The notes under the pieces: model-generated
The model's database searches: none
What the model saw: the letters and a program-made list of their open reading frames with translations, nothing else
Told to the model about the DNA's origin: nothing
NCBI RefSeq assembly: GCF_003334255.1
Contig: NZ_QOWU01000008.1
DNA length: 64,000 nt
Strand: one strand, 5' to 3'
Source of the DNA: Escherichia coli
Lineage (GTDB): Bacteria; Pseudomonadota; Gammaproteobacteria; Enterobacterales; Enterobacteriaceae
In this document: positions 4,027-32,262 of the stretch, one piece after another
Layout: each line of letters begins with the position of its first letter
Numbering within the stretch: the stretch's first letter is position 1
Position numbers and translations under genes: made by a program

Positions 4027-4055
4027 ACCACCACATAACTATGGAGCATCTGCAC

Positions 4056-5360
4056 ATGAAAACCCGTACACAACAAATTGAAGAATTACAGAAAGAGTGG
4101 ACTCAACCGCGTTGGGAAGGCATTACTCGCCCATACAGTGCGGAAGATGTGGTGAAATTACGCGGTTCAGTCAATCCTGAATGCACGCTGGCGCAACTGG
4201 GCGCAGCGAAAATGTGGCGTCTGCTGCACGGTGAGTCGAAAAAAGGCTACATCAACAGCCTCGGCGCACTGACTGGCGGTCAGGCGCTGCAACAGGCGAA
4301 AGCGGGTATTGAAGCAGTCTATCTGTCGGGATGGCAGGTAGCGGCGGACGCTAACCTGGCGGCCAGCATGTATCCGGATCAGTCGCTCTATCCGGCAAAC
4401 TCGGTGCCAGCTGTGGTGGAGCGGATCAACAACACCTTCCGTCGTGCCGATCAGATCCAATGGTCCGCGGGCATTGAGCCGGGCGATCCGCGCTATGTCG
4501 ATTACTTCCTGCCGATCGTTGCCGATGCGGAAGCCGGTTTTGGCGGTGTCCTGAATGCCTTTGAACTGATGAAAGCGATGATTGAAGCCGGTGCAGCGGC
4601 AGTTCACTTCGAAGATCAGCTGGCGTCAGTGAAGAAATGCGGTCACATGGGCGGCAAAGTTTTAGTGCCAACTCAGGAAGCTATTCAGAAACTGGTCGCG
4701 GCGCGTCTGGCAGCTGACGTGACGGGCGTTCCAACCCTGCTGGTTGCCCGTACCGATGCTGATGCGGCGGATCTGATCACCTCCGATTGCGACCCGTATG
4801 ACAGCGAATTTATTACCGGCGAGCGTACCAGTGAAGGCTTCTTCCGTACTCATGCGGGCATTGAGCAAGCGATCAGCCGTGGCCTGGCGTATGCGCCATA
4901 TGCTGACCTGGTCTGGTGTGAAACCTCCACGCCGGATCTGGAACTGGCGCGTCGCTTTGCACAAGCTATCCACGCGAAATATCCGGGCAAACTGCTGGCT
5001 TATAACTGCTCGCCGTCGTTCAACTGGCAGAAAAACCTCGACGACAAAACTATTGCCAGCTTCCAGCAGCAGCTGTCGGATATGGGCTACAAGTTCCAGT
5101 TCATCACCCTGGCAGGTATCCACAGCATGTGGTTCAACATGTTTGACCTGGCAAACGCCTATGCCCAGGGCGAGGGTATGAAGCACTACGTTGAGAAAGT
5201 GCAGCAGCCGGAATTTGCCGCCGCGAAAGATGGCTATACCTTCGTATCTCACCAGCAGGAAGTGGGTACAGGTTACTTCGATAAAGTGACGACTATTATT
5301 CAGGGCGGCACGTCTTCAGTCACCGCGCTGACCGGCTCCACTGAAGAATCGCAGTTCTAA
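4056..5360 (+). CDS. aceA: Isocitrate lyase
   Basis: ORF 4041-5360 trimmed to ATG at 4056 ([22 protein letters not shown]...), 434 aa; recognised as AceA; 14 bp downstream of aceB stop. Confidence 0.95.
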
Positions 5361-5380
5361 GCAACAACAACCGTTGCTGA

Positions 5381-5618
5381 CTGTAGGCCGGATAAGGCGT
5401 TCACGCCGCATCCGGCAATCGGTGCACGATGCCTGATGCGACGCTTGCGCGTCTTATCATGCCTACAGCCGTTGCCGAACGTAGGCCGGATAAGGCATTT
5501 ACGCCGCATCCGGCAATCGGTGCACGATGCCTGATGCGACGCTTGCGCGTCTTATCATGCCTACAACCGTTGCCGAACGTAGGCTGGATAAGGCGTTTAC
5601 GCCGCATCCGGCAATTCT
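5381..5618. repeat. REP/BIME array: about 2.4 tandem copies of a 98-bp unit built from REP palindromes
   Basis: TAGGCCGGATAAGGCG..CGCCGCATCCGGCA recurs at 5384, 5482 and 5580; classic REP consensus in the aceA-aceK spacer. Confidence 0.85.
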
Positions 5619-5640
5619 CTGCTCCTGATGAGGGCGCTAA

Positions 5641-9532
<3,892 letters not shown>

Positions 9533-20299: not shown

Positions 20300-20520
20300 C
20301 CATTTTCAGCCTTGGCACAAGGGAAGAGCGGAAGACGGGTGGGCGCAGAGCGATACTTCGCTACTATTTTCACCCAGAAGTGCTCCACCACTTGCGAAAC
20401 GCCCGACTGCGAACGCTTCTGGTGACAACCCAGGGGATTCAGCCCCTGTAGCCGATGATGAACGTGGCCAGCCGTTCAATCACCTCGGCGATGCACCCCC
20501 TCAGGTGTTATCACAGGACT
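20300..20520 (-). promoter_or_regulatory. lysC 5' leader with lysine riboswitch (L-box); boundaries approximate
   Basis: About 320 bp GC-rich non-coding leader between lysC ATG (20278) and pgi promoter; E. coli lysC is known to carry a lysine riboswitch; structure not folded here. Confidence 0.55.
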
Positions 20521-20802
20521 GGCTCCTCCAACACCGTTACTTGGGCAACGCGCCTCTTCTGGCCTGCGCTAGCGCAGGTAGTACATTTATAAATAAAGGG
20601 TGAGCGGGGCGGTTGTCAACGATGGGGTCATGCGGATTTTTCATCCACTCCTGGCGGTCAGTAGTTCAGCTAATAAATGCTTCACTGCGCTAAGGGTTTA
20701 CACTCAACATTACGCTAACGGCACTAAAACCATCACATTTTTCTGTGACTGGCGCTACAATCTTCCAAAGTCACAATTCTCAAAATCAGAAGAGTATTGC
20801 TA

Positions 20803-22464: not shown

Positions 22465-22553
22465 TGTAGGCCGGATAAGGCGTTCACGCCGCATCCGGCA
22501 ACCGATGCCTGATGCGACGCGGTCGCGTCTTATCAGGCCTACAGGTCGATGCC
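22465..22553. repeat. REP palindromic elements downstream of pgi
   Basis: ATGTAGGCCGGATAAGGCGTTCACGCCGCATCCGGCA ... GCGTCTTATCAGGCCTACAGG. Confidence 0.8.
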
Positions 22554-22615
22554 GATATGTACATCGTATTCGGCAATTAATACATAGCACGATTGATTAA
22601 ATAACCTTAATAACA

Positions 22616-22642
22616 ATGCCGACGTTATGTCGGCATTTTTTT
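22616..22642 (+). terminator. Rho-independent terminator (pgi transcript)
   Basis: Hairpin ATGCCGAC-GTTA-GTCGGCAT followed by T7. Confidence 0.8.
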
Positions 22643-22950
22643 ATCAGATAAATCCCCTTGTCTGTGATTTAACGGAAATCATACCATGAGGTTAATCCTA
22701 AAATAGATTTTTAATCGTTGTTTATTTCGGAAAATACGCAGATTAATTGCTTTTGTTTTTATTTTAAGTTTATGATTTTTATTGTTATTTAAATATAAGT
22801 TGAAACTTATATTTGATATTCATTCCAATTATCCTAAAACGCCATCGCTAATTCCCCGCGCCGTAATTCGCATGCTTTAGTTGTGTATACTCGATCCCGC
22901 CCGAAATGTTTTTGGGTAAATCTCCATTCATTCAATGAAGGGAAATTGTT

Positions 22951-32120: not shown

Positions 32121-32140
32121 GGGGTTCTTCCTCATTCCAG

Positions 32141-32262
32141 GACGGATAAGGCTTTCACGCCTTATCCGACAACAACTGCCTGATGCGACGCTGACGCGTC
32201 TTATCAGGCCTACATACGTTTCGGTTTTGTAGGCCGGACAAGGCGTTCACGCCGCATCCGGC
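32141..32262. repeat. REP/BIME palindromic elements in the malE-malF spacer
   Basis: GGACGGATAAGGCTTTCACGCCTTATCCGAC ... GTAGGCCGGACAAGGCGTTCACGCCGCATCCGGCA. Confidence 0.8.

Follow-up and report, generated by a model that had tools for sequence, protein, structure and literature searches.

In operons such as those of malE-malF and hisJ-hisQ, where a strongly expressed gene precedes a weakly expressed one, intercistronic REPs protect the mRNA of the former from 3' exonucleases. REPs are imperfect palindromes some 35 nt long that have a conserved GTAG at the 5' foot, or CTAC in the inverted orientation, and a stem mismatch, and we used these properties to recognise the elements described below. 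In BIME-2 elements, y and z2 REPs are placed in inverse orientation and joined by a short linker; the tandem copies are well conserved within a locus, their number varies between strains, and the linkers differ in length and sequence. The insertion sequence IS1397 is specific for the palindromic units of BIMEs. The aceK sequence papers of 1988 reportedly already noted REPs at the aceA-aceK site.

The BIME-2 array REP325, on whose unit the Rfam naRNA4 model was built, increases the stability of the yjdM mRNA upstream of it, causes attenuation of transcription into yjdN and gives rise to a ladder of hairpin-ended RNAs (2026 preprint). Its Rho dependence was partial and seen only with the full 12-hairpin array, none being detectable with fragments of 2-4 hairpins (2026 preprint). 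For REP325, the same work saw neither nucleoid compaction nor a ternary complex of HU, RNA and cruciform nor long-range REP-REP contacts, and the role of a discrete 77-nt naRNA4 acting with HU in nucleoid compaction is disputed even for this type locus (2026 preprint). We have analysed the array between aceA and aceK in a 64,000-nt stretch of Escherichia coli DNA (the window). It is a BIME-2 of five REPs in alternating orientation, Y-Z2-Y-Z2-Y, and as such an ordinary element of a long-known kind, not a new element type.

Anatomy and origin of the array

The two ORFs on either side of the array were identified as aceA and aceK by 100% identical annotated matches in a megablast search of 5,426 complete E. 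coli genomes, and the gene arrangement in the K-12 reference is the same. In the K-12 annotation aceA is 1305 nt long, which corresponds to 4056-5360 of the window. The spacer between the aceA stop codon (5358-5360) and the aceK ATG (5641) is 280 bp long and mostly filled by the array, which is thus extragenic and located where an earlier note on this DNA had placed it. Downstream of aceK, a 728-aa ORF on the minus strand (7346-9532) is presumably arpA, a gene that is disrupted in B strains (BL21 paper). Coordinates are collected in Table 1.

Table 1. Features of the aceA-aceK region (positions in the window)
Feature	Position	Strand	Remarks
aceA (isocitrate lyase)	4041-5360	+	mechanical ORF; stop TAA 5358-5360
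Left flank of array	5361-5382	+	5367-5382 homologous to inter-unit linker
Y REP no. 1	5383-5417	+	opens with GTAG; stem 5387-5393 with 5410-5416; -20.9 kcal/mol
Inner linker (13 nt)	5418-5430	+	ATCGGTGCACGAT; locus-specific
Z2 REP no. 1	5431-5466	+	inverted; ends CTAC; -14.8 kcal/mol
Inter-unit linker (14 nt)	5467-5480	+	AGCCGTTGCCGAAC
Y REP no. 2	5481-5515	+	-19.1 kcal/mol
Z2 REP no. 2	5529-5564	+	identical in sequence to Z2 no. 1; -14.8 kcal/mol
Y REP no. 3 (last REP)	5579-5613	+	-18.7 kcal/mol
Rfam naRNA4 (RF02564) match 1	5386-5463	+	85.6 bits; gathering score 59.5
Rfam naRNA4 (RF02564) match 2	5484-5561	+	81.8 bits; gathering score 59.5
aceK translation-initiation region	5614-5640	+	weak Shine-Dalgarno GAGGG 5630-5634, 6 nt before ATG
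aceK (isocitrate dehydrogenase kinase/phosphatase)	5641-7377	+	mechanical ORF
AceK-int small RNA region within aceK	5924-6008	+	terminator-like hairpin 5979-6000, then CTTTTTATCT

Tandem Repeats Finder (TRF) reported a repeat at 5367-5615 with a period of 98, 2.5 copies, 94% matches, 0% indels and a score of 449, and a direct-repeat search gave three in-register copies, at 5367, 5465 and 5563, with spacings of 98 and 98. Both the nearly perfect 98-bp tandem repeat claimed by the earlier note and the periodicity that it proposed to check were therefore present. In the whole 64-kb window only one other tandem repeat reached a score of 80, and its score was 95, which puts the array far beyond chance. 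That second repeat (47333-47404) is AT-rich, with a period of 30, 2.4 copies and 83% matches. The copy starts given earlier (5384, 5482 and 5580) fall within 1 nt of the GTAG feet of the Y REPs, but the repeat itself begins about 15 nt further upstream, at 5367, since the left flank shows homology to the linker between units. Between units 1 and 2 there are 6 differences in 98 positions, confined to the linker and the Y loop; the final 62 nt, from the end of the Y REP through the inner linker to Z2, show none. Over the 53 nt that it has in common with the others, the partial third unit shows 3 differences from unit 2 and 5 from unit 1.

The feet of the REPs are regularly placed, with GTAG at 5383, 5481 and 5579 and CTAC at 5463 and 5561, and the order of Y, 13-nt linker and Z2 found in the first unit is then repeated. 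The folded Y REPs have a stem of 7+4 bp interrupted by an internal AA/GC mismatch, and the stem of the Z2 REPs is bulged. As RNA of the transcribed strand, the predicted energies are -18.7 to -20.9 kcal/mol for Y and -14.8 kcal/mol for Z2 (z about -4), with a C-to-T change giving a G-U pair in the stem of the third Y REP; an adjacent Y+Z2 pair could alternatively form a single long hairpin of -47 kcal/mol. Folding of the entire spacer gave a z of -7.35, and a small hairpin of 6 bp is predicted directly 3' of the aceA stop codon. Both full units scored above the naRNA4 gathering threshold on the plus strand, and the array query matched a median of at least 36 places per genome, with matches in all 5,426 E. 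coli genomes. The anatomy, the folds and the naRNA4 matches thus bear out the earlier description of the spacer as a REP/BIME array.

Elsewhere in the window, two further BIME-2 units scored above the naRNA4 threshold (22469-22539 and 32140-32210, both plus strand), the former adjoined by an STnc430 match (22605-22754, minus strand). A lysine riboswitch (Rfam RF00168, 99.5 bits) was found at 20370-20566 on the minus strand, and a 5S rRNA gene truncated by the window edge is represented by its 3' part at 1-104 on the plus strand.

Both units of the array carry the 13-nt inner linker and the Z2 variant TCATGCC, as against TCAGGCC in the two other BIME-2 units of the window, and E. coli alleles step by exactly 98 bp, from 182 to 280 to 378 bp. 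As the locus-specific linker and Z2 variant are common to both units, the copies derive from one another and not from separate insertions, and the local duplication proposed earlier is upheld. We suggest that the 98-bp Y+Z2 unit would have been tandemly duplicated in place, and that copy number may then drift by unequal recombination or slippage between near-identical units, possibly aided by the REP-associated transposase. The K-12 allele equals that of the window minus exactly one 98-bp unit, with the crossover between offsets 4 and 22 of units 2 and 3.

Alleles in E. coli and spacers of other species

Spacer length was taken as the match span of flank-only queries (aceA 3' end joined to aceK 5' end) in two samples, each of 60 evenly spread rows, which together covered 118 distinct genomes. 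The 280-bp allele of the window, with five REPs, was the commonest, accounting for 58 rows and about half of the sampled strains. A 48-bp spacer without any REP was found in 16 rows (APEC 16-1068, UTI89), and the 182/183-bp class with Y-Z2-Y, to which K-12 and O157:H7 belong, in 11 and 12 rows, respectively. Ten rows had 124 bp, with a Y followed by a Z2/Y chimera (S1-KEN-05-A); spacers of 215 and 228 bp (7 and 2 rows), represented by NRG 857C and LSC52, carried Y-Z2-Y plus a chimera; three rows had 85 bp with a single Y (EC19), and one row had an IS insertion. BL21 has a 378-bp spacer with seven REPs. Alleles with 1, 3, 5 or 7 REPs thus occur alongside chimeric forms, and the comparison of strains suggested by the earlier note revealed that REP number varies from 0 to 7 within E. 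coli.

The outlier strain EC12 turned out to have the ordinary 215-bp allele. In this strain iclR is located directly 3' of aceK and the 728-aa ORF is missing. The annotated length of aceK is 1,725 nt in strains with 48-, 85-, 124- and 215-bp spacers and 1,737 nt in K-12, O157, LSC52 and BL21; since the start codon is common to both, the difference must lie at the 3' end.

An exact count with a junction-spanning query placed the REP-free 48-bp allele in 718 of 5,426 genomes (13.2%), including UTI89, S88, APEC O1, IHE3034, UM146, NU14 and the type strain DSM 30083. This allele keeps a hairpin of its own, with a predicted energy of -19 kcal/mol (APEC 16-1068, L006:301-348), and has a near-consensus Shine-Dalgarno sequence, TAAGGAG, where the BIME-type spacers have the weak GAGGG. 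It resembles the Phytobacter spacer, which has the same length and the same GTAAGGAGAGGCG before the ATG. The allele may be ancestral or imported; the likeness to Phytobacter is confined to the spacer, and the coding DNA on both sides is of the ordinary E. coli type. Over its first 300 nt, aceK matches that of NRG 857C, which has the 215-bp allele, without a difference, and the aceA tail carries ordinary, O157-like E. coli polymorphisms, with no Phytobacter-like tract seen in it. In IAI39 (L009:395-1743), the first Y REP carries a copy of IS1397 in its loop (GGCATT / IS / ATTTACGCC, with an ATT target duplication), which puts about 1.6 kb between aceA and aceK.

We surveyed other species with a degenerate AceK N-terminal pattern in a collection of genomes from 100,044 species, and obtained 120 loci, 111 of them with a measurable spacer. 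In most genera surveyed the aceA-aceK spacer is 48-110 bp long. Salmonella enterica subsp. arizonae and Citrobacter have spacers of 93-111 bp with REP-type palindromes of their own, and E. albertii NBRC 107761 has one of 542 bp with 11 alternating Y and Z2 REPs and a shorter inner linker, ATCAAC. For 103 other Enterobacterales spacers of 30-160 nt, the median folding z against shuffles was -2.8, and 67% were below -2. Taken with the hairpin of the REP-free allele, this cross-species folding indicates that a stable hairpin 3' of aceA is the common theme and that REPs are the Escherichia way of providing it. When stem substitutions were compared over 24 Y and 14 Z2 copies from all alleles, 97 of the 99 Y cells were paired on either strand, with equal G-U counts; the strand asymmetry seen for Z2 in this comparison is intrinsic to its consensus. 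One E. albertii Y copy has a compensatory C-G to U-A change in the stem.

RNA ends and aceK expression

No intrinsic terminator, that is, a GC-rich hairpin followed by a U run, was found in 5361-5640, and the array was ruled out as an intrinsic terminator since it contains no such hairpin and T-run. The nearest plus-strand sites of this kind lie within aceK, at 5925-5940 and 5979-6000. REP-mediated ribosome stalling reportedly occurs when the REP is no more than about 15 nt from the upstream stop codon. The first REP of the array is 22-26 nt from the end of aceA (stop ending at 5360; REP opening at 5383, stem at 5387), beyond that distance.

Published Term-seq data for MG1655 in LB at OD 2.0 place an RNA 3' end at 4218571(+), with 1,115 reads in the context ...CATCCGGCAAT-T (Adams et al. 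2021, Supplementary file 1). This K-12 position corresponds to 5616 in the window, so that the RNA 3'-end mapping proposed by the earlier note yields an end 3 nt past the last REP. In the same sheet the AceK-int 3' end, at 4218963, has 56,453 reads; the authors ascribe this end to intrinsic termination (Adams et al. 2021). The AceK-int end is about 50-fold stronger than the REP end and dominates the 3' ends mapped downstream of the array. The hairpin at 5979-6000 with its T-run coincides both with the annotated Hfq-dependent small RNA AceK-int (K-12 4218879-4218963) and with this strongest Term-seq end of the operon. Premature termination within aceK has been reported (BL21 transcriptome paper), and the AceK-int terminator probably explains much of it.

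The bicyclomycin table of Adams et al. 2021 contains no Rho-termination regions with 42184xx or 42185xx coordinates, in an experiment where the operon was poorly expressed and power was low. An RNase III site listed as 'near aceK' (5'-UTR-type list) was set aside, as the supplement places it at K-12 4219637, some 1 kb into aceK and outside the array. Neither aceA nor aceK is dealt with in the 3'-UTR valve paper. The AceB:AceA:AceK product ratio is quoted second-hand in the BL21 transcriptome paper as 0.3:1:0.003. DESeq base means in the 2026 data set are 3,439 for aceA and 641 for aceK. With our own length normalisation, these base means correspond to a roughly 7-fold difference in mRNA, a rough figure from pooled samples. 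The protein ratio of about 1:0.003 far exceeds this mRNA ratio, and the share of the array in the step-down should therefore be small. Poor translation of aceK is said to take part in the aceBAK differential.

Function of the array and comparison with known systems

With moderate confidence, we favour the view that the array is a BIME-2, formed by duplication in place, that acts locally on aceBAK mRNA as a stabiliser and attenuator. Its hairpins would form a local 3'-UTR-like element within the operon mRNA. By stopping 3'-to-5' exonucleases they would protect the upstream aceB-aceA segment, and some read-through into aceK would be lost at them, making the array a weak attenuator or uncoupler. 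The K-12 RNA end 3 nt past the last REP and the REP325 analogue fit the stabiliser or partial-terminator role that the earlier note had suggested in guarded terms. Its further suggestion, that the array helps to set the step-down from aceA to aceK, holds only in part: a contribution is possible, but it is probably small, given that the AceK-int end dominates and that 13% of genomes are REP-free at this site. The array probably changes the aceA:aceK ratio only modestly, being at most a minor contributor, and most of the step-down would come from weak aceK translation from GAGGG together with the intrinsic terminator inside aceK.

REP-free alleles and a wide range of copy numbers without visible constraint indicate that the array is dispensable. 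A neutral or selfish status is therefore a serious, though less probable, rival: the array would be a passenger of the REP-associated transposase and of recombination, with no selected role in aceBAK, and the hairpin 3' ends would be incidental. The spread from 0 to 7 REPs in E. coli and 11 in E. albertii is what one would expect of a passenger, as are the 13.2% of genomes without a REP at the site; the Z2/Y chimeric junctions and the IS1397 insertion indicate that the site tolerates rearrangement, and TnpA-REP is described in the literature as cleaving and recombining BIMEs in vitro. Against it, one or more stable hairpins are retained 3' of aceA in nearly all alleles and in most related species, the Term-seq data locate an RNA 3' end at the foot of the last REP, and a comparable BIME-2, REP325, measurably affects its neighbouring genes.

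We think it very unlikely that the array acts mainly at the DNA level, as a gyrase-binding and cleavage site or a cruciform/HU nucleoid site that handles the supercoiling generated by aceBA transcription, with the RNA hairpins being secondary. REPs and BIME-2 have been reported to bind DNA gyrase, Pol I and IHF, gyrase also being described as cleaving BIME-2, and the units do match the 'nucleoid-associated' naRNA4 family, but the 2026 study found REP325 to be without any of the nucleoid activities described above, and no sequence feature sets this site apart from the dozens of other BIME-2 copies in each genome. Such a role is in any case compatible with one at the RNA level. Practically no weight can be given to the idea that the array encodes small proteins. 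Two ORFs of 78 and 68 aa (5429-5665, plus strand; 5401-5607, minus strand) do exist mechanically, but they consist nearly entirely of repeat DNA and their products would be arginine-rich read-throughs of palindromes. As 98 leaves a remainder of 2 on division by 3, successive units are read in different frames; the plus-strand ORF splits into pieces of 33 and 43 aa in K-12, and both ORFs are missing from the 48- and 85-bp alleles. On these grounds coding was rejected, in agreement with the earlier dismissal of both entries as artefacts of the repeat. Annotation pipelines should be aware that ORFs may be called inside REP arrays.

We also considered the rather unlikely possibility that the spacer is a lineage-specific non-coding dial for AceK dosage, in which 0, 1, 3, 5 or 7 REPs would grade read-through. 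If this were true, the replacement of GAGGG by TAAGGAG in the 48-bp allele would be expected to raise AceK. Such tuning of AceK dosage by alleles is the only route to higher importance for the array, which is already known in kind, the population detail being description and not discovery. The alleles are useful all the same as a natural series, in which REP number runs from 0 to 7, the REP-free member differs in its ribosome-binding site, and one member is disrupted by IS1397. The series sits before aceK, whose product is needed at about 1/300 of the level of its upstream neighbour, and could serve as a test bed for 'REPs as tunable dials'.

Compared with described BIME-2 elements, the aceA-aceK array has the same alternating Y and Z2 REPs, GTAG/CTAC ends, stem mismatch, short linkers and strain-variable number of tandem copies. 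Nothing essential differs, the local peculiarities being the inner linker ATCGGTGCACGAT and the Z2 variant TCATGCC. The insertion in the array of IAI39 fits the reported target specificity of IS1397, and the window is without such an insertion. Like malE-malF and hisJ-hisQ, the locus has REPs between a strong upstream and a weak downstream gene of one operon; it differs from them in that published work points to premature termination inside aceK and, reportedly, to poor translation as the source of most of the aceA-aceK differential. With REP325 the array shares the Y+Z2 unit, the tandem arrangement and the position between two co-transcribed genes, although it has 5 hairpins where REP325 has 12. 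By analogy, the aceA-aceK array is expected to behave as REP325 does, as a stabiliser of the upstream mRNA and a partial attenuator.
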